Assembly: GCA_038998585.1 (NCBI GenBank)
Contig: JAVZGQ010000001.1
Coordinates: forward strand, 9,684-73,683
Direction: 5' to 3'
DNA: 64,000 nt
Source: Candidatus Aenigmatarchaeota archaeon
Lineage (GTDB): Archaea; Aenigmatarchaeota; Aenigmatarchaeia; CG10238-14; SCSR01
The position numbers were made by a program, and so were the translations under genes. This document shows positions 1,756-51,183 of the stretch, piece after piece (position 1 is the first letter of the stretch; each line of letters starts with the position of its first letter). The notes beneath the pieces are model-generated. The model worked only from the letters and a program-made list of their open reading frames with translations. It was not told where the DNA came from and did no database searches.

Positions 1756-4700
1756 TCACATTTTTTGTAAAATTCCTACTTTAGGCTCAAACAAATCTCC
1801 TTTATTTTTTAACTCGTTCAAGATCTTCTCCACATCAAATTCTTTGAGTCCTTTATCTTTTGCAATTCTAAGTATATCTTCTTTTGGGATGGTATTCCCC
1901 ATAGTTTTTGACAATTCTTCTATGATATCCAGAACAACCCTTATCTTACCCCTTTCAGACGCAGTTGTTCTACCTTCAAGCCTATCAACATCAAACTTAC
2001 CAGTTTCGGCCTCAAATCCAAATTCTCTTAATGAGGCTTTCATCAAGTTTATGGCCCTTATGGCGTCTTCTCTTGTCACAACATCTCTTAACTGAACTTT
2101 TGCAGAAGCTTCCGCCAGTCTTATTAAAGCCTCATACTGTCTTAGAGTTATAGGAACAGCGGCCTCTTCAGCGCTGACTTTTTCTCTAAGAGACACAAAA
2201 AAGTTCTTTATTTCTTCCCCAGCTTCTCTAGATAGCTTTGGATGACAATTCTTTCTTGCGTAGGCTATATATTTCTTGAGAAATTCTGAATCTATTAATG
2301 GCCCCACATCTTCTTCTCCATAATGTCTTGATTTCAAAATGTGCTCAGCAACTTTAGCATCAATCTCAGGGTTTGGTATGTCACGTAAGGCAAACTTTAA
2401 ATCAAACCTCGAGAGCAAAGTTTCTGGAACATCTATTTGCTCTTTTATTGGTAAATAAGGGTCGAATCTCCCTAGCTTTGGGTTTCCACCGGCAAGAATC
2501 GAAGTCTGAGCCGGCAGGGTTGCTACTATGCTAGCTTTAGCTATGCTTATAGTTTGCTGCTCCATTGCTTCATGTAAAGCGACCTGATCACTTTTTTCCA
2601 CTTTTTCAAACTCATCTATAGCACAAAGTGATTTGTTACACATGACTAAAGCACCAGCTTCTAGAACCCAACCACCCAAAAATTCTTCATCTCTAACTAC
2701 AGTTGCGGTATTATGAATAATAATGCCATTTGCAACAAAACTGTGTTCATCTTCAACTGTTATATCATACACATACTCATAGTCTTTATTTTCTATTATC
2801 TCTACCTTTTCAATCCTATCCCAAAAAATATCTGATTCAACAAATTTTACAAGATCTTTAATTTGACCAAACTTATTCAACAATTTTTTCAAAAAGCTGC
2901 GTGTGGGTTTTCTTATATTTTTTTCATATTCGTAGCTTTTATATCCATAAAATTCTTTAGCGGATAGACCAAGTTCATTTCTAATTTCTCTTAATAAATT
3001 ACCAATTTCTGGAATTACATCAATATTTGAATTTTCTTTAGAACATTTTTCTATTATTTCGTCTAATTTTTTTGATTTGTATTTATCTCTAAATCCTATT
3101 TTTTTTCTAAAAATTTTAAGATTTTTCAAACCATTGATTACAAGAACATATTTCTTCCCAGAGTTAACCGTCCGACCTCTTAAAGATGTCCTGGGACTTT
3201 TTTCTCTCACTAAAGAAATTATGCCATATCTCAACAAGAGTAATTGCAATACTCTTATGAATTCTTTGCTATTTGACGAGAGCTCCACACGGTTTGATCT
3301 TTTAGAGTTTTTTTCAATTACAGAACCACTGGTATCAAATATTACCTGAAGATAAGTGGCTAAAATATTTTTTGGAAGTAGTGATAATTCTTCTGCGAAT
3401 TTCGACTCATCTGTTTCATATTCCTTCACAGCCCCATATTTACTGAAAGTCATTGGGTTGAAAATAAAATAAGGGACCCTGCTATGGTATGGTTCTATAC
3501 ATAATTCTTTCCAACACACAGTCCTAAAGCCCATTAAAAAATCATCACAGATTTTTAAAAACTTTATATCGAATCCTTCTCGATTGTTTCTTGGTATGCT
3601 TCTATCATTCACCACTGACCCTATCGGGTGTGTCAAATCTGAATTAATAGAAAACAAAGTATTTATTTTATATCCATGACATTTGCTCAAAACTATATTC
3701 TTTGGTAATTCACCCAACGACTTTGTCTGGTTAGATTTATTTTCATTTACAGAACAAATGCGTGGTGTAGCGATATATTCTCCTTGAATTAACTCAGATG
3801 CAGGCTTCCAGCATATTTTAGCATTTTTTATCACCGGAATCGGGTTTTCTGGAGTAACTATAACTTCTTTCCCTGTTTGAGTTACTACTTTAACCATTTT
3901 TTTTGGAGCTTTTAATTTCCAATATCTTGTTATTCTAAGTGGTTTTAACTTTAAATTTTCTTGGTCAAATGAAAGAATCTTTCTTGGGGAACCCTGTGTC
4001 ACAAAACCGTCTTCGATTTTTTCAAAATCTTTTTTTAGTTCCTCTTCCACTAACTTTCCTATTTGTATTAATGACCCATCTTCTAATTGCACTAAGGTCT
4101 CGTAAACTGTACACAGTCCTGCGGCGGTGACACCCTTACCAGACACATATTTCCCCCTGGGAATTAAGGTTGAAACCACTTTCATCAAAGCACTCTTAGC
4201 AGTTGAAGGATCCCCAACCAATAATATGTGAATATCACCCCTTACTCTAGATTTGTCCTTCTGCACGTGCTGCTCCCCACCAAACAACTGTAGTACAATA
4301 GCTTCTTTTATGTGTTCTAGTCCATACAAGCTTGGTGCGATGGATGTCACGAGCTTTGAGTATATTTCAGGATCTTTTGAAAATTCCACAATCATTTTCT
4401 CATCTTCAGGAGTTATTTCTAGCTCCTCCCACTCAACTTCCACACTTTCGACAGAATTAGCGTCAATGTAAATTTCAAGCTGCCTGGATCTTGTACCCTT
4501 AACTCTTCTTGGAATTTGCTTCAACACACCTACAACTTTTATCCTATTTCCAGGATCAGTTTTGTTCTGCATTTTTGGTGAAGTTAAATCTTCTTTTAAG
4601 AAGATCATTATCTCAGAAGGTCTTTCACCGCTTGTTATTTCGAAAGGCTCTTCAATTGTTATCCACCTAGCATCGTAAAGTTTTTGATCTATTAACTTGA

Positions 4701-5169
4701 AATTCCTTCTGTTTCCACATTGACAATCATTTGGTGGTATTATGAATCTTTCAGTTTGAATAACATTTATCTTAGCTCCACACTCAAGACATTGAAAAAT
4801 AGCTTCTGAGACCTCTGGTCTAATTTCACTCGCTCTTTTAACAATACCATCAACAGATATCAGCTTGCCTATGTGTTCTGCTCTTATGTTCCTTATCCTT
4901 ATTTGTCTTTCTTCTGGTAAGTTAAAAAACCTTATTCTTATGTTCGTGCTGCTCGGCAAATCTATTTGCTTCAGAGAATCTTCTATTGCTGTTAAAACTT
5001 CATCGGGATTTTCAAGCAAGTAGTCTGCAAGCTCAGGGTCGAATTTATCTAAAACTGAAAAATCAACTAGCAAGGATTTTTTGCCTTCGATTGTAGTTGC
5101 GACTAATTCATTGTAGAAATATTCTTTAAAAAATTCAGCAAACTTTTCAACTATTTCTCCTCTTTCCAT
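1756..5169 (-). CDS. mcm: MCM replicative helicase, intein-containing
   Basis: Walker A GDPSTAKS, Zn finger CxxC..CQC, arginine finger region, C-terminal wH; intein inserted after GKGVTAAGL and before TATVVRD; likely start is MERGEIVEKF at 5169 (the track's 5259 start overlaps TBP). Confidence 0.9.
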   Translation of the reverse strand: MERGEIVEKFAEFFKEYFYNELVATTIEGKKSLLVDFSVLDKFDPELADYLLENPDEVLTAIEDSLKQIDLPSSTNIRIRFFNLPEERQIRIRNIRAEHIGKLISVDGIVKRASEIRPEVSEAIFQCLECGAKINVIQTERFIIPPNDCQCGNRRNFKLIDQKLYDARWITIEEPFEITSGERPSEIMIFLKEDLTSPKMQNKTDPGNRIKVVGVLKQIPRRVKGTRSRQLEIYIDANSVESVEVEWEELEITPEDEKMIVEFSKDPEIYSKLVTSIAPSLYGLEHIKEAIVLQLFGGEQHVQKDKSRVRGDIHILLVGDPSTAKSALMKVVSTLIPRGKYVSGKGVTAAGLCTVYETLVQLEDGSLIQIGKLVEEELKKDFEKIEDGFVTQGSPRKILSFDQENLKLKPLRITRYWKLKAPKKMVKVVTQTGKEVIVTPENPIPVIKNAKICWKPASELIQGEYIATPRICSVNENKSNQTKSLGELPKNIVLSKCHGYKINTLFSINSDLTHPIGSVVNDRSIPRNNREGFDIKFLKICDDFLMGFRTVCWKELCIEPYHSRVPYFIFNPMTFSKYGAVKEYETDESKFAEELSLLPKNILATYLQVIFDTSGSVIEKNSKRSNRVELSSNSKEFIRVLQLLLLRYGIISLVREKSPRTSLRGRTVNSGKKYVLVINGLKNLKIFRKKIGFRDKYKSKKLDEIIEKCSKENSNIDVIPEIGNLLREIRNELGLSAKEFYGYKSYEYEKNIRKPTRSFLKKLLNKFGQIKDLVKFVESDIFWDRIEKVEIIENKDYEYVYDITVEDEHSFVANGIIIHNTATVVRDEEFLGGWVLEAGALVMCNKSLCAIDEFEKVEKSDQVALHEAMEQQTISIAKASIVATLPAQTSILAGGNPKLGRFDPYLPIKEQIDVPETLLSRFDLKFALRDIPNPEIDAKVAEHILKSRHYGEEDVGPLIDSEFLKKYIAYARKNCHPKLSREAGEEIKNFFVSLREKVSAEEAAVPITLRQYEALIRLAEASAKVQLRDVVTREDAIRAINLMKASLREFGFEAETGKFDVDRLEGRTTASERGKIRVVLDIIEELSKTMGNTIPKEDILRIAKDKGLKEFDVEKILNELKNKGDLFEPKVGILQKM
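2710..4113 (-). other. intein (468 aa) in the MCM ATPase domain, with a putative LAGLIDADG-type homing endonuclease core
   Basis: Begins with Cys after AAGL (CTVYETL...) and ends ...IIHN followed by T; removing it restores the conserved MCM sequence KGVTAAGLTATVVRD. Confidence 0.85.
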
Positions 5170-5251
5170 GACAATTATTTCTACGCACTTATTAATTTTA
5201 AGTTTTTTGGAATGATGAAAAAAATTAAAAAGTAAGTAAAATGTTCGCAGT

Positions 5252-5806
5252 TTATTCATTGATTATTGCTTTGATTTCCTTCAGCCTCTTGTAAACTTTA
5301 TCCAGGGCATTCTTCACATCTTTTACGCTTCTACCCCCAGTGCAAACTATTTTACCAGATCCAAAGAGCAAGAAAGCAACCTTCGGCTCATCCATCCTAT
5401 AAACCAATCCTGGAAACTGCTCTGGTTCATATTCTGAATTTTCAAGTTTGAGGGCAATTGTATCTAAGTTAAGATTTCCTTCTATCTTAGCTGAGGCCAC
5501 TATGTTTTCAACTTGTATTTTAAAATTTTTTGGGACTTGAACTCCCACACTTTTGATCACAGAAACAATTTTTTTAAAGACAGCGTTAACATCCTCTATG
5601 TTTCTTGCCCCGGTACATACTATCTTTCCAGAACTAAAGATTAGAGCAGCTGCTTTCGGCTCATCCATCCTATAAACCAATCCTGGAAACTGCTCTGGTT
5701 CATATTCCATTCCTTCAAGCTTTGAAACTATTTTTTCAAGAGGCACTTCCACATGTAAAGAAGCTGATGCAACTATATTTTCGATTTTTATTTTGAAATC
5801 TGACAT
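5252..5806 (-). CDS. tbp: TATA-box binding protein
   Basis: 184 aa with two internal direct repeats (…PEQFPGLVYRMDEPK…SGKIVCTG…, twice). Confidence 0.9.
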   Translation of the reverse strand: MSDFKIKIENIVASASLHVEVPLEKIVSKLEGMEYEPEQFPGLVYRMDEPKAAALIFSSGKIVCTGARNIEDVNAVFKKIVSVIKSVGVQVPKNFKIQVENIVASAKIEGNLNLDTIALKLENSEYEPEQFPGLVYRMDEPKVAFLLFGSGKIVCTGGRSVKDVKNALDKVYKRLKEIKAIINE

Positions 5807-6362: not shown

Positions 6363-6974
6363 ATGTAATTTTATAGCAAAAATGAGCTAAATCCTAACAA
6401 TGGAAATATGAATTTTTTGTACAAATCTTCTCACACCAACACTAAAATCAAAGCTATGGCCTCAAATTCTTTTCCAAACAAGAATTTTTTAAATAAAATA
6501 TTCTACAAAAATCTTAGTCTCTCCTGTATTTTTTCCCTTGATTTTCTGCGCTTCTTTTAATTTCAAATTTCTTATAATGTCACTTAACCACTCTTTGCAG
6601 TCAACACGGATAATCTAAATTCTTAATAAGAAATCATGACTAGTGAAAATTCAACAAAGACCCCTTAAACCCCATAGAGTTATTTTTTATTTTTTATTGG
6701 TTCTTGTATTGTTTTTTCTCTAAATTTTTCTATTTCTTCTAAATCTATCGTCACAAATTAATTATAGCCTATTTAAAGTGAAAGAAATTGTTTAGTTCCC
6801 TAGATTTTATTTTGTGTAAATTCTATATCTTCATTTAGAAAAATGTTCTGGCGGGGTAATAAATGAATTCAAAAAACCGGTTGTTTACAAATACTTAAAG
6901 AATTATAAAAAATTAATTTAGTAAAGTGTTCAAATGATTTATAACATAAAATACTGACTAAAAGGGGTGATTTA

Positions 6975-7708
6975 ATGTTAATAGCAGGTATCGATGAGGC
7001 TGGTAGAAAACGATAAGTCTGGAGGATTTTCGTTTGCCATAAGGTGCTCTCATCGGTCCGATGGTCATAGCTGGAGTTGTGATAGACGATAAAGACGAGA
7101 AGAAACTTAAAAAAATAGGAGTGAAGGATTCTAAGCTTTTATCTCCAAGAAGAAGGGAAGAACTTGCCAAAAAAATAGAAGAAATAGCAAAGAATATTGT
7201 TGTTTTAAGAGTCCAGCCTTGCAAAATAGATTCTTATCGTGCTAAAGGTATAAATTTGGATAAAATAGAAGCCATGAAGATGGCAGAAATAATTGGGATG
7301 TTTGGTGCAAAAAAAGTTTTCATCGATTCTTTGGAACAAAATGCAAAAAAATTCGAAAATCTAATCAGGAGTTTTTTAAATGAAAGAGATCTTGAGCTAA
7401 TTGTTAAAAATTATTTGGACGAATCAATACCAGTCGTATCTGCAGCTAGTATAATTGCCAAAGTTGAACGCGATGCTGCAATAGAAGAGATAAAGAAAAA
7501 AGAGGGAACAGATTTTGGAGTGGGGTACAGTCATGATCCTAGAACTATAGAATTTGTTGAGAGATTGATAAAAGAAGGAAAAGGAAAACTTCCCTCTTAT
7601 GTTAGGCAATCGTGGATAACAACCCAAGAATTAAAGAAGAGATCTCTTCAACAAAAAATTAAAGATTTCTTTAAAAAAGACGAAAAAATTAAAAGGGAAA
7701 AAGTATGA
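6975..7708 (+). CDS. rnhB: ribonuclease HII, coding sequence interrupted by a 35-nt insertion (frame shifts after DEAGR)
   Basis: ATG at 6975 with an SD-like aggggtga; encodes MLIAGIDEAGR then KR-stop; the downstream frame resumes at 7043 with GALIGPMVIAGVV...; removing 7008-7042 restores the canonical DEAGRG-xx-IGP motif. Confidence 0.7.
7008..7042 (+). other. 35-nt insertion in rnhB forming a hairpin (aaacga-16nt-tcgttt) with an in-frame TAA
   Basis: 6-bp perfect stem aaacga/tcgttt; 35 nt is not a multiple of 3; flanking codons match conserved RNase HII residues. Confidence 0.6.
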
Positions 7709-7956: not shown

Positions 7957-9261
7957 ATGAGAAGAATTTTCACTAAAGAGCTGGCGAAGTTTGTTGGAAA
8001 AAGGGTAAATATTTTTGGTTGGGTCCACGATGTCAGATTTTTAGGTAAAATTAATTTTTTAATTCTAAGAGATAGGGAAGGGATGGTTCAAGTTATTGCT
8101 CAAAAGGATAAAATCTCAGAAGAGGCTTTCAATTCTATAAAAAAACTTCATCAAGAAGACGTTGTTTCAATTCAAGGGAAAGTCGTGGAGAGTAAAGTAA
8201 AAAAGGGAGTTGAAGTTTTGCTAGAGAGTATAGAGGTTGTAAGCAAAGCACATGTTCCATTGCCTCTAGATCCAAGATGGGTGACACCAGCAAACTTGGA
8301 TACGAGGTTAGAGTGGAGACCATTAGACTTGAGGAGAAAAGATAACATTGCCATATTTAGAATACAGGCAAAAATTGTTGAAGGAATGACAGAATTTTTA
8401 AGAAAGAAAGGCTTCTTACAAGTTTTCACACCATCTCTAATTGGTGGGATTTCTGAAGGTGGTGCGGATGTTTTCAAAATAAATTTTTTTGGTAAGGAAG
8501 CTTTCCTAAGGCAAGATCCACAACTACATAGACAACTGTTGATATTAGCAGGATTTGAAAAAATTTTTGATGTTGGTGCAAACTGGAGGGCAGAGCCTTC
8601 CGACACACCATACCATTTAGCAGAACACAGAAGCATAGCTCCTGAGCTTGTGTTGAAGGATGAAAGTGATATGATGAAATTGGAAGAAGAGATGGTAAGA
8701 TATGGGATAAAAAAAATTATAGAGGAATGTGGTGACGAGCTCAAAACCCTTGGTAAAGAAATAGAAATTCCTAAAAAATCTTTCCCAGAGCTGAGATTCC
8801 CAAAAATCTATGATATATTGAAAGAATATGGTAAAGAACTACCTTTTGGTTCAGATGTAGATAAGGAAGCTGAAAAAATACTATTGAAATATGTTAAAGA
8901 AAAATTCAAGCATGATTTCTTTTTCATAAACAGATTTCCATCAAAAATTAAGCCTTTTTATGTCATGCGTGTAGATGATGAACCTGAATGGGCTAGAAGT
9001 GTTGACCTGATTTTTAAAGGGCTGGAAGTGTCTTCAGGGGGTCAGAGAGAACATAGGTACGAAAAAATAATTCAACAGGTGAAAGAAAAGGGCATGAATC
9101 TAGAGCATATAAAATGGTTTACAGAACATTTTAAGTATGGCGCTCCTCCCCATGGAGGCTTTAGCTTGGGTTTAGAAAGGTTTACTATGCAGCTCCTTGA
9201 TATAGTGAATATAAAAGAGGCAGTTCTTTTCCCCAGATATTTAACAAGAATATTACCATAA
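7957..9261 (+). CDS. aspS: aspartyl-tRNA synthetase (archaeal type)
   Basis: 434 aa class IIb aaRS: N-terminal OB anticodon-binding domain, motifs 1-3, C-terminal GGFSLGLERFTMQLL...LFPR. Confidence 0.75.
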   Translation: MRRIFTKELAKFVGKRVNIFGWVHDVRFLGKINFLILRDREGMVQVIAQKDKISEEAFNSIKKLHQEDVVSIQGKVVESKVKKGVEVLLESIEVVSKAHVPLPLDPRWVTPANLDTRLEWRPLDLRRKDNIAIFRIQAKIVEGMTEFLRKKGFLQVFTPSLIGGISEGGADVFKINFFGKEAFLRQDPQLHRQLLILAGFEKIFDVGANWRAEPSDTPYHLAEHRSIAPELVLKDESDMMKLEEEMVRYGIKKIIEECGDELKTLGKEIEIPKKSFPELRFPKIYDILKEYGKELPFGSDVDKEAEKILLKYVKEKFKHDFFFINRFPSKIKPFYVMRVDDEPEWARSVDLIFKGLEVSSGGQREHRYEKIIQQVKEKGMNLEHIKWFTEHFKYGAPPHGGFSLGLERFTMQLLDIVNIKEAVLFPRYLTRILP

Positions 9262-21508: not shown

Positions 21509-22348
21509 TTGCTAGTAAAAATTATTTCCTTACAGTGTTTTTGCCCGACAAACTTTGGTTTAAATAGTAAAATGGTCAAATTAAAAACTGTGAAATTTAA
21601 CCAGAATTTAGCAACTATATATGGATATCTTTGCACAGATGGTTATGTAATAACTAATCCACCAAGTCAAAAACATAAGTATTATTGTATTGGTTTAAGA
21701 AATAAGAATGAAATAATTTTACAAGATTTTCAGAAGAATTTTGAAAAAGCATTTGGGATAAAACCAATAAAAGAAAAAGATAGATGTAAACTCCAAAATA
21801 AAAACTTATTTTTACAACTTACAAAAAATTTTTCATTCTATTCTGTATTCTATTCTGATAAGTGGGGTATGTCAAAACTTTCTTTAGAAGAATTAAAATG
21901 TCGGCTAAGAGCTTATTTTGATTGTGATGCATGAGTTGAGTTTCAAAAAGGTAAAAGTAGATCAATAAGATTAGAATCTATTAACAAAAATGGTCTAGAA
22001 CAAATTAGAACCTTTTTATTAAAGTTTGGGATTAAACCCTCTGATGCGAAGAAAATAAAGAATAGAAATATTTGGCATATTTATATTTGTAGTAAAGATA
22101 ATCTTCTAAGATTCAAAGAAAATATAGGATTTTTACATCAAGATAAAAATAAAAAAATCTTAGAAACTATCAACTCATATAAAACTTATGAATGGATAAT
22201 ACCAAATAAAAGAGAAGAATTTATCGAATTTATAAATAAAAAAGATAGGTTGAGAAACGACACTAAAGATATTAGATTCTTTTCAATACTCAAAACTAAT
22301 TTAATAAAATTAAGAGATAAGCTAATGGATTACAACTTTAATGTATAA
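21509..22348 (+). pseudogene. free-standing LAGLIDADG homing endonuclease gene interrupted by an in-frame TGA (21932-21934)
   Basis: First motif LATIYGYLCTDGYV; second motif LRAYFDCDA-stop-VEFQKGK; the same frame stays open 137 more codons to TAA at 22346. Confidence 0.6.
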
Positions 22349-22431
22349 ATATATGGCCCATGGAAGAATAATAGAGGGAGAATTTATTATTGTTTATCTT
22401 TTAAACAAAAAGAACTAATTAAATTAAGGAG

Positions 22432-23927
22432 GTGAGAGAGATAAGTCTAAAAGAAAAATTGAGAAAAATTAGGCCTTGCATATGGGAATTGCCAAAAGAA
22501 GCCAAGCAAGGTATGAAAGTACCAGCATGGCTTTTCTTGTCAGAAAAACTTTTAAAAGAAGTAGAAGACGGAGCAATAGAACAAGCAGCCAATGTTGCTT
22601 TTCTACCAGGAATTTACAAGCATAGCATAGCACTCCCCGATATGCATTTTGGATATGGATAGAGCTTAGCTTCCCAGAATTCCAATAGGGGGAGTGGCAG
22701 CATTAGACTACAAAGAAGGCGGCTTGAGCCCCGGTGGCATCGGATTGGATTTAGATCCACGAAATTGACATAAATTGTGGGGTTCGCCTCCTTCGCACAA
22801 ATCTAACAGTAGATCAAATTAGACCAAGGCTTAAAGATTTGCTAGAATCGATTTTCAACAATGTTCCCTCTGGAGTTGGTGAATTTGGTAAGATTAAGTT
22901 AAGCTTTTCTGAGCTTGATGAAGTTCTGTTTAAAGGAGCAAGGTGGGCTGTTGAAAAAGGCTATGGGACTGAAAAAGATTTGGAACATTTAGAGGAAAAC
23001 GGTTGTATTAAAGGCGCAAACCCAGAAAGAGTTTCTATCCAAGCTAAAAAGAGAGGTGCTCCTCAGCTTGGTACTTTAGGAGCAGGGAATCATTTTCTTG
23101 AAATTCAAGTTGTGAATAAAATATTTTTACCAGAAGTTGCGAAAGTTTTTGGAATAGAAAGAGAAGGACAGGTGTTTGTAGAAATCCATACAGGGTCAAG
23201 AGGGTTGGGACATCAAGTTTGTGCAGATTACCTAAAAATTTTAGAATCAAGGTTTAGAGATGAATTGAGAAAATTACCTGATCGTGAACTAGTTTATGCC
23301 CCTGCTGGAACTCAAGAATGTGAGGATTATTTTTCTGCAATGGCTTGTGCTGCAAACTATGCTTACACCAATCGACAAGTGATAACTCATTGGGTAAGAG
23401 AAAGTTTAGTTAAGGTATTAAAAATGAAACTAGAAGATATAGGGCTTGAAATAGTTTATGATCAAGCACACAATCGTGGATTTATCGAGGAACATAAAAT
23501 TAACGGTGAAAAGAGAAAAGTCTTTGTGCATAGAAAAGGTGCTAGTCTTGCCTTACCACCAAATCATCCCAATCTACCTCCAGAATATAGGAAGACAGGT
23601 CAGCCGGTATTAATTCCAGGTTCTATGGGGAGTGCATCATATGTATTGGTAGGTCAGGAAACAGGAGAAATAACATTTTATTCTACTGCTCATGGTGCAG
23701 GAAGAGTCGAATCAAGATCGAGAGCACTTAAACAAATAAGAGGAGAAGAAGTTGCGAAAATGCTCGAACAAAGAGGTATACTAACAAGGGCGGCAAGTTG
23801 GAAAGTTCTTGCAGAAGAAAGGCCAGAGGCATACAAGGAAATAGACGAAGTAGCACGAGTTAGCGATGAAGCTGGGATAGGAAAGCGTGTAGCTCGTTTT
23901 GTTCCTCTTGGAGTTGTAAAAGGTTAG
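22432..23927 (+). CDS. rtcB: tRNA-splicing ligase RtcB, coding sequence interrupted by two 19-nt insertions
   Basis: GTG start preceded by aggagg; N-terminal 76 aa end at ...DMHFGYG; the middle segment [22 protein letters not shown] is in the +1 frame; the C-terminal 362 aa ([10 protein letters not shown]...GAGNHFLEIQ...) are in the next frame. Confidence 0.75.
22660..22678 (+). other. 19-nt insertion #1 in rtcB (tagagcttagcttcccaga)
   Basis: Starts with an in-frame TAG; removal gives [11 protein letters not shown], matching the conserved RtcB sequence. Confidence 0.65.
22745..22763 (+). other. 19-nt insertion #2 in rtcB (ttggatttagatccacgaa), contains hairpin ggat-ttag-atcc
   Basis: Removal gives [14 protein letters not shown], matching conserved RtcB; the insert carries stops in both adjacent frames. 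Confidence 0.65.
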
Positions 23928-24523: not shown

Positions 24524-24943
24524 TTAAATGTCCAGAATAACTCTAGCTTTCCAAATTTCGTTCTTTTTGATTTCCATTTTATGATATGTGCAGGCTTTAA
24601 CATGAGTTCTTGTTTCATGTTTTTCTCTATCCATAAATTCTCCTTTACATTTAGCTTTTAAGCTTAAATTTTTTTCATCAACTTTTACACTAAATTTTGA
24701 GAAGGCCAAATTTTCTGCATCTACAAAAACCAACAATTCATTCAACCAATTGAAGAGAAGTGATTGGAGGTCTTTCCCGTTCAATTCAATACTTCTTTCT
24801 ATTCTCGCTTTTACTTGTTTTGTGTTTATTATGACCTCAAACATCGCTAGTGCTGCATTGGTAAATAATTCATCCAGATTTTTACCATAAGCTTCAAAAG
24901 CAACATCACTCGTTGTTATGTCAACAAACTTAAATTTCTTCAT
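24524..24943 (-). CDS. archease (RtcB ligase cofactor)
   Basis: 139 aa; HTADI-type N-terminus (VDITTSDVAFEAYGKNLDELFTNAALAMFEVI) typical of archease. Confidence 0.8.
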   Translation of the reverse strand: MKKFKFVDITTSDVAFEAYGKNLDELFTNAALAMFEVIINTKQVKARIERSIELNGKDLQSLLFNWLNELLVFVDAENLAFSKFSVKVDEKNLSLKAKCKGEFMDREKHETRTHVKACTYHKMEIKKNEIWKARVILDI

Positions 24944-32036: not shown

Positions 32037-32553
32037 ACTAATACTAAATAATAATAAAGTAATTAAAGTTTGTTGTTAGTGCAAATAAGTTGATGTGAAT
32101 AATATAGGACAAGAAAAGAAAAAAAAGAAAGTTTGCCTATAAAAATTAGGCATATTAGACGTGGTTTTTAGGCAGAAGGAGTTGTTTGTTCCTCAGGTTT
32201 TGGCTCCTCTTTCTTTTTCTTTGCCATTCTCTCACCCCTTTATATTTTTTCATCCTTCTTGGACGAAGGAATCATCTTTATTAACAGCATAAAAAATAGG
32301 TAAGATAAAGATGACCGATAACTTTAAGTAGAAGTTCTACCATCTTCTTACTCTTAAGCTTTTCGGATAAGCTTAAATTTAAGGAATACAATAAAAAAGA
32401 CCTTATTTTTAGATTCCATTACAATATTAATTTGTTCTTTTAGATGGACATCAATAAGTTTCTTTATGACTTTTTAATTAAGGCCCATATTTTTAAGGAT
32501 ATGTCAGGAATTCATCTGAGAATCTGGCCATCAAAAATAAAAAATAGGAAACT

Positions 32554-32651
32554 TGCAGGGGGTGGGATTCGAACCCACGAAGGCACTAAGCCACTAGGTT
32601 TCCTCTTAACACCTAAGCCTAGCCCGATTGACCAGACTACGGGACCCCTGC
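32554..32651 (-). tRNA. tRNA-Leu(UAG) with ~12-nt intron in the anticodon loop
   Basis: Acceptor GCAGGGG/CCCCUGC-A, T-arm GUGGG-UUCGAAU-CCCAC, long variable arm; anticodon stem CUAGG/CCUAG encloses 19 nt (CUUAGG + 12-nt intron + A). Confidence 0.7.
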
Positions 32652-32711
32652 AATATTTGAGATAAGTTTTCTAGAAATTAAATCTTTGTTGTTTTTTATT
32701 TCAGGGACTAA

Positions 32712-34462: not shown

Positions 34463-34558
34463 TGCCCCCTCAGGGATTTGAACCCTGGTTCACAGCCCGA
34501 GAAGCTGTTGTCCTATCGATTTTACATAGTTCAATTAACCGGGCTAGACGAAGGGGGC
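34463..34558 (-). tRNA. tRNA-Glu(CUC) with ~19-nt insertion (intron) in the D-loop
   Basis: Acceptor GCCCCCU/AGGGGGC-A, T-arm CAGGG-UUCAAAU-CCCUG, anticodon arm ACAGC-UUCUCGG-GCUGU; D-stem GUCU/GGAC encloses 31 nt beginning AGCCCGGUUAAU (Glu-like D-loop). Confidence 0.55.
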
Positions 34559-35136: not shown

Positions 35137-35241
35137 AATTTATCTTTAGTTGGCTACTATTTAAATATTGCTTTTGTTCCTTTTGTTATTCCATATTCTG
35201 ATCAATAGGGTGTAATCTGATAGATTCATAAAAGAAATGTA

Positions 35242-35327
35242 TGGGCCTGGAGGGATTCGAACCCCCAACTCGAGGTTTCACCAAAAAACCGAAGCCTCGC
35301 CGGATATCCAAGTTTCCACACAGGCCC
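35242..35327 (-). tRNA. tRNA-Arg(UCG) with 12-nt intron after position 37
   Basis: Acceptor GGGCCUG/CAGGCCC-A, D-arm UGGA/UCCG, anticodon stem CGAGG/CCUCG enclosing CUUCGG + UUUUUUGGUGAA + A, T-arm GGGGG-UUCGAAU-CCCUC. Confidence 0.65.
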
Positions 35328-35606
35328 AATAATAGGTTGTCTTTTATTTAAAAAAAACTTGTGAGTATAAAAAATCAATTCTATCAATAAAATTAAAAAA
35401 TAAAAAAAGAGCGGGGATCAGAATTCTTCTGATTCCTCTTCCCCTATAAAGAGGTCTTCATCTTCGAAGGGATCCCACAGGTCTTCATTATCTTCTTTCA
35501 TCAGCCTCTCCTCCGCAAACCCATTTCTCCCAGGTCTAGAGTGTGAAACATAAAGCTAAGAGAGAAATAAGTTTTCCTGAACAAAGTGGGTTTGCTTATG
35601 GATAGA

Positions 35607-44395: not shown

Positions 44396-44500
44396 CGCCC
44401 TCGGTGGGATTTGAACCCACGACCTACCGGTTAACAGCCTCACCTTCCTTCTGGAATCGGGTGCTCTACCACTGAGCTTCCCCCGTATAACTACGAGGGC
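44396..44500 (-). tRNA. tRNA-Asn(GUU) with two short insertions (putative introns: ~14 nt after position 9, ~20 nt at 29/30)
   Basis: Acceptor GCCCUCG/CGAGGGC-G, D-arm GCUC-AGUGGUA-GAGC, loop CUGUUAA, 3' anticodon stem CCGGU, T-arm GUGGG-UUCAAAU-CCCAC; the 5' anticodon stem ACC..GG is split by CGAUUCCAGAAGGAAGGUGA; GUUAUACGGGGGAA lies between U8A9 and the D-stem; the leader carries a GCCCUCG-AGAGA-GCCCUCG direct repeat. Confidence 0.5.
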
Positions 44501-44569: not shown

Positions 44570-45856
44570 TCAGGGATACACTCTGTTTACTAGTCTTGGA
44601 AAAGCAATCGCATCCCTTATATGTTTGAGCTTACAAATCCACATCACAAATCTTTCAATTCCCAAACCAAACCCTGCATGTCGAACAGAGCCATATTTTC
44701 TCAAGTCCAAATACCATTTATAGGCAGAGACGTCGAGCTTCTCCTCTTCTATCCTTTTCATCAACTCTTCAAAACTTTCAATCCTTTCCCCAGAACCAAT
44801 TATTTCTCCATAGCCTTCTGGAGCCAGCATATCAACACTTAAAGTTACATTTGGGTTTTGTGGATCAGGTTTGTGATAGAATGCCTTTATTCCCTTTGGG
44901 AAATGTGTGACAAAAAAAGGAGTTTTAAACTCAAGTGCTAAAACTTTTTCTTCATCTGCCCCGAGATCATCCCCATATTTTACCTTCACCCCTTTTTCTT
45001 GCAGAATTTTTATCGCTTCTTCATATTTTATTCTTGGGAAAGGGGGCACCATCTTCAAAAAATCTTCAGGATTTCTTCCCAATTCTTTCAACTCAATTTC
45101 ACACTCTCTAGCAACTTTTTGTAAGATATGGACCACCAATTCTTCTTCAATCTTTACTAATTCTTCAAAGCCACAAAAAGGCATCTCAGCCTCAAGATGC
45201 CAGAATTCTGTTAAATGTCTTCTCGTCCTAGACTTCTCTGCCCTGAATGATGGAGCTATCGTGTAACATCTTCCAAAACCAAAAATCATTGCTTCTCCAT
45301 ACAATTGCCAAGACTGGGTCAAGTAGGCTTTAGAATCAAAGTACTTTAGTTCAAACAAGGTTGACCCACCTTCGCAAGCAGCCCCAACTATTATCGGCAC
45401 CTGGACTTCCAGGTAGCCATGCTCTTTAAACCATTCTCTTGCAGCTTCTAAGACTTTGGCCCTAATTTTTATTATTCTGTTCATCTTCTTACTTCTTATC
45501 CAAAAATGACGGTTGTCTAATAGAAATTCAGGACCATGATATTTTTTTCCAATCGGGAAATCTTCCATTGCTCTACTCAAAACTTTAACTTTTTCCACTA
45601 CTATTTCGTATCCATAGGGTGCTCTTTGATCTTTCTTTACTTTACCAAAAATTTCTATCGCAGATTCCAGGGGCAATTTTTCAATTTCATCAAAAGTTTT
45701 TTCATCTAACTGATCTTTCTTTAAAGTGCATTGGATGAAGCCTGTACCATCTCTTACTATCAAGAATAGAATACCGCCTGAGCTACGTTTGTTGTGAAGC
45801 CAACCTTTAATTTCAACTTCCCCTTCCAATTTCTTAAATATCTCAGCTATATCCAT
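44570..45856 (-). CDS. asnS: asparaginyl-tRNA synthetase
   Basis: 428 aa class IIb aaRS (OB domain, motifs 1-3, C-terminal AGFGLGIERFVMW...AFPR); assigned Asn rather than Asp because it is flanked by two tRNA-Asn genes and an asnA/asnC-like pair, and a distinct AspRS is at 7957. Confidence 0.65.
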   Translation of the reverse strand: MDIAEIFKKLEGEVEIKGWLHNKRSSGGILFLIVRDGTGFIQCTLKKDQLDEKTFDEIEKLPLESAIEIFGKVKKDQRAPYGYEIVVEKVKVLSRAMEDFPIGKKYHGPEFLLDNRHFWIRSKKMNRIIKIRAKVLEAAREWFKEHGYLEVQVPIIVGAACEGGSTLFELKYFDSKAYLTQSWQLYGEAMIFGFGRCYTIAPSFRAEKSRTRRHLTEFWHLEAEMPFCGFEELVKIEEELVVHILQKVARECEIELKELGRNPEDFLKMVPPFPRIKYEEAIKILQEKGVKVKYGDDLGADEEKVLALEFKTPFFVTHFPKGIKAFYHKPDPQNPNVTLSVDMLAPEGYGEIIGSGERIESFEELMKRIEEEKLDVSAYKWYLDLRKYGSVRHAGFGLGIERFVMWICKLKHIRDAIAFPRLVNRVYP

Positions 45857-46121: not shown

Positions 46122-47108
46122 CTATGGCGAAACGATTCCGGGAACTTTAGGGAAAGGAACAGCTTCCCAAATTTTTTCTATACCACAAACCCATCTTGTC
46201 AGTCTTTCCACACCAATTCCAAATCCAGAAGATGGTGGTATACCGGCCTTCAACATACCTAAATACCATTTGTACTTCTTGGGGTTTTCTCCAGTTTTTT
46301 TCATTCTTTCAACAACTTTTTGATATTCGTGTTCTCTTTCCCCTCCAGAAATAACTTCACCAAAGCCTTCTGGTAAAATCAAGTCAAAATCCCTCAATCT
46401 TTTCGTTTTTGGATCTTCAAGATAATAGAATCCTCTTGCCTTAAGAGGATAGTCGGTTATCCAGAATGGCTCAGAGTTTTGAGCTGAAAGAGCTTCTTCA
46501 GCCTCCCAAGGAATTTCTTCTTCGTCTCCCATCTTGAACCCAAGCTTCCTCACCGCCTCTACTGCTTGATGGTGAGTTAATCTTTTGAAAGGAGTTTTAG
46601 GAATTTTTATATTCCTGTTGAAAATTTTCAGCTCTTTGAAACATTTTTTCTTCAGATCTTTTAATACATAAACAATCATTTTTTCTCCTAAATACATAGA
46701 ATCTTCATAAGTGGCGTAAGCTTCTTCCAAATCAATTTGCCTGAATTCGGCCAAATGTCTTCCCGTCTGTGCAGACTTAATGGGTTCAATCCTTATGTTT
46801 GGCGAAAGAGAAAAAATTTTGTTAATAGAGGAAATTGCCATCTGCTTGTATAAGATCATACTGCTCATGAGTCTAAATTTCTGTCCATAAAAATTTATCA
46901 TCACTTGTTTCGCACCCCTTATTCCTGGGTCAGTAGCAGGACCAATTATTGGGGCAAGAATTTCTATGAACCCATGTTTTCTTAAAAATTCTCTTATGGC
47001 TGTTAAAATTTCATCTTGAATTTTAAGCATTGCTACCATTTTAGGATGTTTTAAAGTTATGTATCTATACTTGATTGAATCGAGTTTGTCAAGCTTCATA
47101 TTCATCAA
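46122..47108 (-). CDS. asnA: AsnRS-paralogous asparagine synthetase A-like protein (class II aaRS catalytic core without anticodon-binding domain)
   Basis: 328 aa; class II motifs (FRAE..., GFGIGVERL) but no N-terminal OB domain; resembles the archaeal AS-AR type. Confidence 0.5.
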   Translation of the reverse strand: MMNMKLDKLDSIKYRYITLKHPKMVAMLKIQDEILTAIREFLRKHGFIEILAPIIGPATDPGIRGAKQVMINFYGQKFRLMSSMILYKQMAISSINKIFSLSPNIRIEPIKSAQTGRHLAEFRQIDLEEAYATYEDSMYLGEKMIVYVLKDLKKKCFKELKIFNRNIKIPKTPFKRLTHHQAVEAVRKLGFKMGDEEEIPWEAEEALSAQNSEPFWITDYPLKARGFYYLEDPKTKRLRDFDLILPEGFGEVISGGEREHEYQKVVERMKKTGENPKKYKWYLGMLKAGIPPSSGFGIGVERLTRWVCGIEKIWEAVPFPKVPGIVSP

Positions 47109-51006: not shown

Positions 51007-51088
51007 GGGTCCGTAGTCTAACGGTAGGACGTCAAGTTTGCGGAACCCTGACACGGTGAAGAAAGGAGTTCAATTCTCCTCGGACCCA
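51007..51088 (+). tRNA. tRNA-Val(GAC) with 11-nt intron at position 29/30
   Basis: Acceptor GGGUCCG/CGGACCC-A, D-arm GUCU-AACGGUA-GGAC, 5' anticodon stem UCA[AGUUUGCGGAA]CC pairing with GGUGA, loop CUGACAC, T-arm AGGAG-UUCAAUU-CUCCU. Confidence 0.6.
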
Positions 51089-51096
51089 CTTTCTAA

Positions 51097-51183
51097 AGCC
51101 CCAGGCGGGATTTGCACCCGCGACCTCATGCTTACCATGCTTACGCAGATCTTATGCGCTCTAGCTAGCTGAGCTACTGGGGC
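51097..51183 (-). tRNA. tRNA-Thr(GGU) with 13-nt intron at position 29/30; unusual T-loop (G at position 55)
   Basis: Acceptor GCCCCAG/CUGGGGC-U, D-arm GCUC-AGCUAGCUA-GAGC, 5' anticodon stem CAU[AAGAUCUGCGUAA]GC pairing with GCAUG, loop AUGGUAA, T-arm GCGGG-UGCAAAU-CCCGC; tandem 9-nt GUAAGCAUG repeat. Confidence 0.5.

Follow-up and report, generated by a model that had tools for sequence, protein, structure and literature searches.

How does an archaeal cell obtain a full-length ribonuclease HII (RNase HII) from a gene whose reading frame runs into a stop codon shortly behind the catalytic motif? This question is raised by rnhB in a stretch of 64,000 nucleotides (nt) from Candidatus Aenigmatarchaeota archaeon (contig JAVZGQ010000001.1), which we will call the window and number from its first letter. 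The window has 33.5% G+C and encodes an RNase P RNA of archaeal type along with several tRNAs, and the closest database proteins all belong to Candidatus Aenigmatarchaeota, a phylum of the DPANN. We will argue, from the DNA of the window and of its relatives, that the 35 nt that separate the two halves of rnhB are very probably an archaeal bulge-helix-bulge (BHB) intron, that is an intron of the tRNA type, removed at the RNA level.

The ATG of rnhB lies at 6975-6977, and the frame that it opens reads MLIAGIDEAGRKR before it meets a TAA at 7014-7016. The protein resumes in the +2 frame at 7043, which reads GALIGPMVIAGVV and stays open up to the stop at 7708. A sequence-only reading of this locus had described the start (MLIAGIDEAGR), the end in KR-TAA and the resumption in the other frame, and all of this can be read in the sequence. 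Deleting 35 nt, either 7008-7042 or 7007-7041, leads to the same product, a 232-amino-acid (aa) open reading frame (ORF) that ends at 7708, and the two deletions are equivalent, an A standing at 7007 as well as at 7042. Once joined, the exons read GGU AGA GGU GCU (G-R-G-A), which restores the motif DEAGRG, and the predicted splice junction brings GCTGGTAG next to AGGTGCTC, which can also be given as GATGAGGCTGGTAG next to AGGTGCTCTCATCGG. The 232-aa protein matches the Pfam profile RNase_HII over its entire length (1-199 of 199, 152 bits); the ORF that starts at 7061 covers only positions 15-199, with 116 bits. The restored protein also aligns from residue 1 with the solved archaeal RNase HII 1UAX (MKVAGVDEAGRGPVIGP..., E 2e-41), and exon 1 therefore carries the active-site Asp-Glu. 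These are Asp7 and Glu8, which we take to be the active-site residues of archaeal RNase HII. The earlier claims that the deletion restores the DEAGRG spacing and that a start at 7061 gives a protein deprived of the catalytic Asp and Glu are thus both borne out.

The gene has no other lesion, and its protein is 60-85% identical to those of relatives along the full length. The protein deposited for it (P0001, MEM5766037.1, 218 aa, starting MGPMVIAG) is a truncated gene call. Without splicing, the mRNA codes only for a 13-residue peptide or for a protein that is truncated at its N-terminus and misses the catalytic Asp/Glu. The same holds for many relatives in the databases: 48 of the 120 closest RNase HII proteins lack the DEAGR N-terminus, and several read through the insert in another frame, as in MRLAENESLNDFRLPQ followed by GALIGP.

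What kind of element the insert is was read from an unconstrained folding of 6990-7060. The insert had been seen as a hairpin with a 6-base-pair (bp) stem and a 16-nt loop; stem and loop are indeed there, but it is not a mere hairpin, as the stem is the inner helix of a BHB motif that also uses the UGGU of exon 1 (Table 1). A BHB is defined by two 3-nt bulges with a 4-bp helix between them (PMC5829648), and its cleavage takes place between bulge residues 2 and 3 (PMC2738675). In rnhB, the central helix H comprises 4 bp, including one G-U pair, and the rule of cutting after the second bulge nucleotide on both sides excises exactly 7007-7041 and leaves DEAGRG. The 5' half of the motif, made of the inner helix, the bulge and the central helix, is canonical. 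The whole departs from the strict hBHBh' form, which calls for flanking helices h and h' of 2 bp or more each: the inner helix h has 6 bp, which covary, and the outer helix h' begins 3 nt off the 3' bulge and then extends over 11 bp. The motif belongs with the relaxed BHB forms.

Table 1. Coordinates of the rnhB intron, of its structural elements and of other features of the window; a slash marks the predicted cut (MFE, minimum free energy).
Feature	Positions	Strand	Remarks
Shine-Dalgarno sequence GGGGTGAT	6964..6971	+	strong; 3 nt 5' of the exon-1 ATG
rnhB exon 1	6975..7006	+	MLIAGIDEAG and bases AG of the Arg codon; holds catalytic Asp7/Glu8; 5' cut after 7006 predicted from BHB geometry
Exon-exon outer helix, 5' strand (AUCGAUGAGGC)	6990..7000	+	MFE fold, RNAalifold consensus; 91% of cells paired in 11 sequences
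Central helix H, 5' strand UGGU, in exon 1	7001..7004	+	pairs with 7036-7039; 100% paired in 11 sequences
5' bulge B1 (AG/A)	7005..7007	+	3-nt bulge in MFE fold and RNAalifold; predicted cut 7006/7007
BHB intron, 35 nt	7007..7041 (= 7008-7042)	+	folding, BHB geometry, protein register
Inner hairpin h	7008..7035	+	stem AAACGA 7008-7013 / UCGUUU 7030-7035; extension AAGUCU 7015-7020 / GGAUUU 7024-7029
Central helix H, 3' strand GCCA, 3' end of intron	7036..7039	+	pairs with 7001-7004
3' bulge B2 (UA/A)	7040..7042	+	predicted cut 7041/7042; in MFE folds within a 6-nt loop, 7040-7045
rnhB exon 2	7042..7708	+	base 3 of the Arg codon, then GALIGPMV... up to the stop
Exon-exon outer helix, 3' strand (GC.CUCAUCGGU)	7046..7057	+	MFE fold, RNAalifold; CTC/ATC codon fixation
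rtcB (RNA-splicing ligase)	22432..23927	+	two 19-nt BHB-like introns, 22661-22679 and 22746-22764; H 3/4
Archease (RtcB activator/cofactor)	24524-24943	-	about 600 nt 3' of rtcB; full-length Pfam match
Overlong tRNA genes	32553-32652, 34463-34558, 35241-35328, 44403-44480, 51097-51183	-	
Overlong tRNA gene	51007-51088	+	

The strongest evidence comes from relatives. A set of 100 related loci was drawn from the genomes of GTDB and the metagenomes of JGI, the genome scan with peptide patterns giving 20 loci and the metagenome scan with alignment giving the useful set; 95 loci could be classified, and rnhB is continuous in 53 of them and interrupted in 42. For scoring, the deletions that restore D-E-x-G-R-G-x-x-x-G-P were listed first, and only then was it checked whether a BHB predicts one of them. 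All 40 interrupted loci scored in this way have H paired 4/4, 3 nt at both bulge positions and an inner helix abutting the 5' bulge, and the rule-based cuts lead to GIDEAGRG; the loci L085 and L098, read by hand, are interrupted too. Three insertion sites, which lie 1-9 nt apart, are used. The site inside the Arg codon (AG/A) is found in 13 loci, including the window, and in L098, with inserts of 22-37 nt; a site 1 nt upstream of it is used by L063 alone (31 nt); and the site after the Glu codon is found in 26 loci and in L085, with inserts of 15-24 nt. The sequences of H are unrelated between the sites: UGG[GCU]/[CG]CCA, CUGG/CCAG and GACG/CGU[CU]. Intron lengths range from 15 to 37 nt and cover all three phases, with in-frame lengths of 15, 18, 21, 24, 30 and 36 nt. 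No gene among the interrupted loci carries two rnhB introns. In all of them exon 1 is open, the GIDEAG codons are kept and a strong Shine-Dalgarno sequence (GAGGTGAT) stands at the same distance.

As a separate observation on the start of this gene, about a dozen relatives (L053, L083, L013, L073, L094, L033, L034 and L077 among them) have an rnhB devoid of an ATG, GTG or TTG start, and 3-5 nt past a strong GAGGTGAT Shine-Dalgarno sequence one finds ATT, ATA or ATC in frame. This suggests that rnhB may use non-canonical initiation codons in those relatives.

The comparison bears directly on the possibility that the insert is simply kept, the locus being then a pseudogene, the source of a truncated protein started at 7061, or an assembly or sequencing artefact. 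The truncated ORF proposed by gene callers would agree with this, as would the representation of the source genome by a single contig in the database and the decayed look of a LAGLIDADG gene nearby. Against it, the insert stands at the same place in 42 independent loci from different projects (NCBI, JGI and ENA), so that it is a genuine intervening sequence, as the sequence-only reading had supposed, and not an assembly error. The preserved exon 1, the absence of other lesions and the full-length similarity of the protein to its relatives also speak against it, as do the compensatory changes that maintain the helices (see below), and the protein from 7061 would have to do without Asp7 and Glu8. 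We consider a retained insert very unlikely. Continuous orthologues in relatives had been named as a finding that would count against an intron; they do exist, in the 53 loci mentioned, yet they do not refute it because the intron is patchily distributed.

The helices are maintained by compensatory changes at both of the main sites. At the Arg-codon site (11 sequences), 95% of the cells are paired and covariation reaches 0.279, against 0.110 in shuffled alignments, a value that 0 of 500 shuffles attain; sliding by 1-3 columns leaves 28-47% paired. At the after-Glu site (22 distinct sequences), the corresponding values are 97%, 0.270 against 0.153, 0 of 500, and 25-46%. H pairs in 100% of the cells of either set, and each pair of the inner helix shows compensatory double changes, which are also seen in one H pair and in one or two pairs of the outer helix. 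The fourth pair of H covaries in the 11 sequences (GC in 8, CG in 2, UG in 1). Covariation even links the two exons, the third base of the Glu codon (GAG/GAA) changing with the third base of the Ala codon (GCC/GCU) to give GC in 4, AU in 3 and GU in 2 cases. Single-sequence MFE folds give the BHB architecture in nearly all loci.

The presence of the intron is also visible in the choice of synonymous codons around it. Loci with an intron in the Arg codon all use GAT for Asp (11/11, versus 25/46 in intronless loci), GCT for Ala (11/11 versus 23/46) and AGA for Arg (11/11 versus 15/46), and they mostly use CTC for Leu (8/11 versus 5/46) and ATC for Ile (9/11 versus 10/46). Those with an intron after the Glu codon use GGC for Gly (23/23 versus 12/46), GAC for Asp (22/23 versus 21/46) and a CGN codon for Arg (23/23 versus 27/46). 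The Pro and Val codons close by remain diverse. In the closest pair of genes with and without the intron, L082 and L060, which share 89% nucleotide identity, there are 7 synonymous differences in the 8 codons round the site and hardly any just downstream. Structure rather than sequence is conserved, and exon codon choice tracks the presence of the intron.

These data also allow one to weigh translational recoding, in which the ribosome would bypass the insert or frameshift over it and no RNA processing would take place. A stop codon does come soon after the take-off region, a stable hairpin occupies the gap, and the introns of cbf5 were themselves once mistaken for frameshift sites (PMC2738675). 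However, insert lengths of 15-37 nt in all three phases, in-frame ones included, do not fit a frameshift, and we see neither a conserved pair of take-off and landing codons that would give DEAGRG nor a slippery heptamer. A hopping signal would moreover need nothing like the 4-bp helix and 3-nt bulges that are conserved in exact register at three unrelated sites. A hop in the manner of phage T4 from GGU 7002 to GGU 7043 was considered and rejected, as it would remove Arg-Gly from DEAGRG. Recoding is thus, to us, a very improbable explanation.

On the intron reading, the maturation of the rnhB transcript would proceed as follows. In the pre-mRNA, the UGGU of exon 1 would pair with the GCCA at the 3' end of the insert into the 4-bp central helix, the hairpin of the insert would form the inner helix, and exons 1 and 2 would pair with each other into the outer helix, leaving a 3-nt bulge on each strand. 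The tRNA splicing endonuclease EndA, to which the sequence-only reading had rightly pointed, would then cut at 7006/7007 and 7041/7042, leaving 2',3'-cyclic phosphate and 5'-OH ends, and the ligase RtcB, with Archease, would join the exons, restoring DEAGRG and a full-length, active RNase HII. The relaxed 3' site would imply an endonuclease of broad specificity. The EndA types that accept relaxed motifs are the (alpha-beta)2, the epsilon2 and the alpha4 enzymes with an L3 insert; broad specificity goes with particular inserts, and the L3 insert is widespread in the alpha4 enzymes of DPANN, alongside disrupted tRNA genes (PMC5829648).

Several points weigh against this reading. The 3' splice site is non-canonical: at most one C-G pair (7000-7043) closes the 3' bulge, MFE folding and RNAalifold show a 6-nt loop in its place, and strictly specific endonucleases are not expected to cleave such a relaxed site (PMC5829648). 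A gene for EndA was found neither in the window nor in roughly 0.5 Mb of sequence from relatives; the EndA of M. jannaschii, used as the query, matched just a protein with a bifunctional-nuclease domain. The ligase gene rtcB is itself interrupted, and ligation would need pre-existing RtcB or a second copy. No spliced twin of any intron-bearing locus was found, the closest pair with and without the intron being the one at 89% identity. The structure-registered cores used for the covariation analysis (A2, A3) were cut by the assumed geometry, which favours pairing somewhat; RNAalifold on the untrimmed sequences, which provides an unbiased check, recovers the outer helix, the 4-bp helix, the 3-nt bulge, the inner helix and the 6-nt 3' loop, with 7 compensatory pairs. 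Finally, the BHB geometry taken by itself shows no enrichment in this AT-rich window, with 2919 hits on both strands versus about 3000 in Markov shuffles, and the significance of the motif therefore comes from its exact placement and its conservation in relatives. If position and length are fixed, the probability of meeting a BHB with H 4/4 and an inner helix of 6 bp or more is 7.7e-5 in the window; as the protein motif is restored by no more than 3 deletions, the chance expectation comes to about 2e-4. The window-wide BHB scan was accordingly rejected as an intron finder: its hits are as frequent in shuffles, and those that fuse ORFs mostly concern adjacent genes of an operon.

Three of these points, namely the relaxed 3' site, the EndA gene not seen in the window or in the related sequence, and the interruption of rtcB, can also be turned into arguments for removal of the insert from the RNA by a machinery other than EndA and RtcB, be it another pair of nuclease and ligase or self-cleavage. 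Yet what is conserved is exactly the set of features by which EndA substrates are defined (the 4-bp helix, the 3-nt bulges and the cut after the second bulge nucleotide), and in Crenarchaeota and ARMAN relaxed BHBs are known to serve as substrates of EndA (PMC5829648, PMC2738675). We give this alternative little chance, and another RNA-processing machinery is an unnecessary assumption. As for self-splicing, the core of a group I or group II ribozyme comprises hundreds of nucleotides. An insert of 35 nt, or 15-37 nt in relatives, is far below that size, and RNase P RNA and tRNAs are the only hits when the window is scanned with Rfam, so that group I and group II introns are ruled out.

The intron is distributed in a patchy fashion. 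The three states intermingle in a neighbor-joining tree built from the 220-aa protein and change about 24 times, the tree being too weak for numerous gains and losses to be told apart from a lack of resolution. Every state occurs among genes that share at least 77% identity with the rnhB of the window, and protein clusters at 90% mix full-length and truncated RNase HII calls that belong to different strains with 90-92% identity. The presence or absence of the intron clearly varies among close relatives. No further copy of the intron sequence was found in the window or in the 100 related loci, save at the orthologous position. A small mobile element at the DNA level, similar to a miniature inverted-repeat transposable element (MITE) and lodged in the gene by chance, would suit this patchiness, but we reject it as the least probable of all the explanations given the lack of dispersed copies, of terminal repeats and of a target-site duplication, the size of only 15-37 nt, and the fact that exon bases supply half of the conserved structure.

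The BHB intron of rnhB is not alone in the window, as rtcB constitutes a second host gene. The sequence-only reading had noted the same phenomenon there, and BHB-like introns are indeed present, but rtcB is interrupted twice and not once. The deletions yield GYGFPIGG and GGIGFDINCG, which are the residues of all 120 continuous relatives; the other deletions that restore the frame would put I, Y or L instead. When database entries are ranked on the C-terminal fragment of RtcB, about 34 of the 120 closest are truncated calls, and the DNA of eight of them (L101-L108) was examined. The strict form of the motif is found in L103 (22 nt, DI/NCG, H 4/4, inner helix 5, outer helix 4) and in L106 (20 nt, GY/GFP, H 4/4, inner 5, outer 2), and L104 has two introns, one of 17 nt at GY/G and one of 22 nt at DI/N, both canonical. 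Introns of 14 nt at GG/IG are carried by L105 (H 4/4, inner 1, outer 3) and by L102 and L108 (H 3/4, outer 5). L101 has 19 nt at the second site of the window, with H 3/4, the same G·A and an inner helix that covaries with that of the window. L107 has no intron, its truncation being due to the contig end. The five insertion sites in rtcB lie within about 75 nt, in the active-site region GYGFPIGG...GGIGFDINCG. The contigs of L029 and L035 share the rnhB intron with the window and have an intact rtcB, and both genes therefore acquire introns independently.

Directly 5' of rtcB, at 21509-22425 (+), stands a LAGLIDADG-type, homing-endonuclease-like gene, which is also found in L104 (1-414) with 67% identity. 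In the window it has in-frame stops (CDA*VEF, and FNV*IYGP where L104 has K), and it looks like a decaying gene.

How far do such introns extend to other genes? Among the about 60 ORFs of the window, truncated coverage of Pfam profiles revealed nothing convincing besides rnhB and rtcB, and tblastn against the 100 related loci revealed no short inserts in the syntenic genes around rnhB (TBP, AspRS, MCM and a small ORF), as compared in 44-79 relatives. The genome-wide class of intervening elements that had been proposed is therefore not upheld, and the evidence fits a few hot-spot genes rather than a pervasive interruption. In L073, the AspRS gene (3413-4718, 3' of rnhB) has a 4-nt frame break between collinear tblastn segments; it is too short for a BHB intron and may stem from a sequencing error, from a frameshift or from another cause.

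The tRNA genes of the window also hold introns. Several bear one, in one case at a non-canonical position, and tRNA-Glu(CUC) is recognised only once a 21-nt BHB insert in the region of the D-arm is removed. Together with the RtcB and Archease genes of the window, these tRNA introns speak for BHB splicing being active in this genome, and the non-canonical one lends indirect support to an EndA that would accept relaxed motifs. Most of the tRNA genes exceed the standard tRNA length, and ARAGORN mis-types or misses them. The scanner gave tRNA-Leu(UAG) an intron of 24 nt with three G-U pairs, which is probably wrong: by eye, a 12-nt intron together with a long variable arm fits better, and the gene probably has a 12-nt intron at 37/38.

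Two further observations concern neighbouring genes. Within the MCM helicase gene (1756-5259, -), the two halves of the P-loop domain are separated by an intein that has a LAGLIDADG domain (Pfam matches Intein_splicing and LAGLIDADG_3). The window also encodes three class-II synthetase paralogues of the Asp/Asn/Lys type, at 7957-9261 (+), 44570-45856 (-) and 46122-47108 (-); the third is devoid of the N-terminal anticodon-binding OB domain and may be asparagine-synthetase-like.

The known system that comes closest is the intron of the crenarchaeal pseudouridine synthase gene cbf5, reportedly described by Watanabe in 2002 and by Yoshinari in 2006, and treated by Yokobori in 2009 (PMC2738675). 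For more than 20 years, cbf5 was the only confirmed case of an endonuclease-type intron in an archaeal protein-coding gene. As in rnhB and rtcB, it is a short, protein-free intron of a gene that encodes a protein, with a BHB that is often relaxed and made in part of exon bases, and it lies within the catalytic-motif codons of an enzyme that processes nucleic acids; in both systems gene callers mis-annotate the gene, confusion with frameshifting has arisen, and losses are lineage-specific. Indeed, the cbf5 pre-mRNA of Crenarchaeota has a relaxed BHB cut between bulge residues 2 and 3, inside the catalytic Asp codon, and has lost the intron in particular lineages (PMC2738675). The differences are that the hosts here are rnhB and rtcB in another superphylum (DPANN, Aenigmatarchaeota), that there are 3 sites in rnhB and 5 in rtcB instead of a single one, that the introns are very small (14-37 nt), and that their distribution is much patchier, presence varying among genes at least 90% identical. 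Splicing was confirmed by experiment for cbf5, whereas here it is predicted from DNA sequence. According to a study in Haloferax, the literature holds "one mRNA" that has a BHB, to which that study adds another mRNA substrate (PMC7714728), and a structural paper of 2025 on archaeal endonucleases cites the cbf5 work alone. We found no report of BHB introns in rnhB, in rtcB or in DPANN mRNAs in a search whose scope did not extend to subscription journals, and an earlier report is possible.

Other systems share some of these properties. Archaeal tRNA introns, canonical and non-canonical, are reportedly covered by Marck and Grosjean (2003) and by the work of Sugahara, Fujishima and Kanai on Thermoproteales and ARMAN. 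They resemble the present ones in their hBHBh' or relaxed motif, their size range (11-175 nt in tRNAs), the enzymes presumed, the occurrence of multiple sites per gene and the rapid gain and loss known for them. They differ in that the host is here an mRNA, whose exon halves must also encode conserved amino acids, and this leads to the fixed synonymous codons and to the exon-exon covariation at third codon positions. In HAC1/XBP1, a short intron is likewise removed from an mRNA independently of the spliceosome, by an endonuclease acting on stem-loops and a tRNA-type ligase (RtcB in metazoa), with a change of frame and of the protein made, but the endonuclease is Ire1, the recognition motif is another one, and the reaction is a regulated stress switch. 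In gene 60 of phage T4, too, the coding sequence is broken by a short untranslated gap that contains a hairpin and a stop codon. Translational bypassing there relies on take-off and landing codons that match and on a signal from the nascent peptide; no such feature is conserved here, where a BHB is found instead.

To the single case of cbf5, the present loci add two more host genes, a different superphylum, dozens of natural variants, several sites per gene and variation among near relatives. The gain and loss of introns, the substrate range of DPANN endonucleases and the interplay of RNA structure with codon choice thereby become directly testable. The interruption of RtcB, the ligase needed to seal such introns, raises a question of bootstrapping and autoregulation. 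Annotation is affected as well. Since gene callers overlook the introns, about 40% of the closest RNase HII entries are devoid of the catalytic Asp/Glu and truncated versions make up about a quarter of the closest RtcB entries, which distorts inferences on the functions and the completeness of DPANN genomes.

We can go one step further, although only tentatively, for we hold what follows to be a possibility rather than the likelier outcome: Aenigmatarchaeota may harbour a dynamic population of BHB micro-introns (14-37 nt) that arise and disappear time and again and that prefer the catalytic-motif codons of nucleic-acid-processing enzymes, and the expression of RtcB may depend on inherited RtcB. 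If this is true, the preference for catalytic motifs would span DEAGRG in rnhB, GYGFPIGG...GGIGFDINCG in rtcB and the catalytic Asp of the crenarchaeal cbf5. The dependence of RtcB on itself would then constitute a self-referential circuit dependent on a heritable protein, which could be autoregulatory or act as a fail-safe, tying the enzymes of DNA and RNA maintenance to the state of the splicing machinery, and these archaea would offer a natural system for the spread of endonuclease-type introns into mRNAs.

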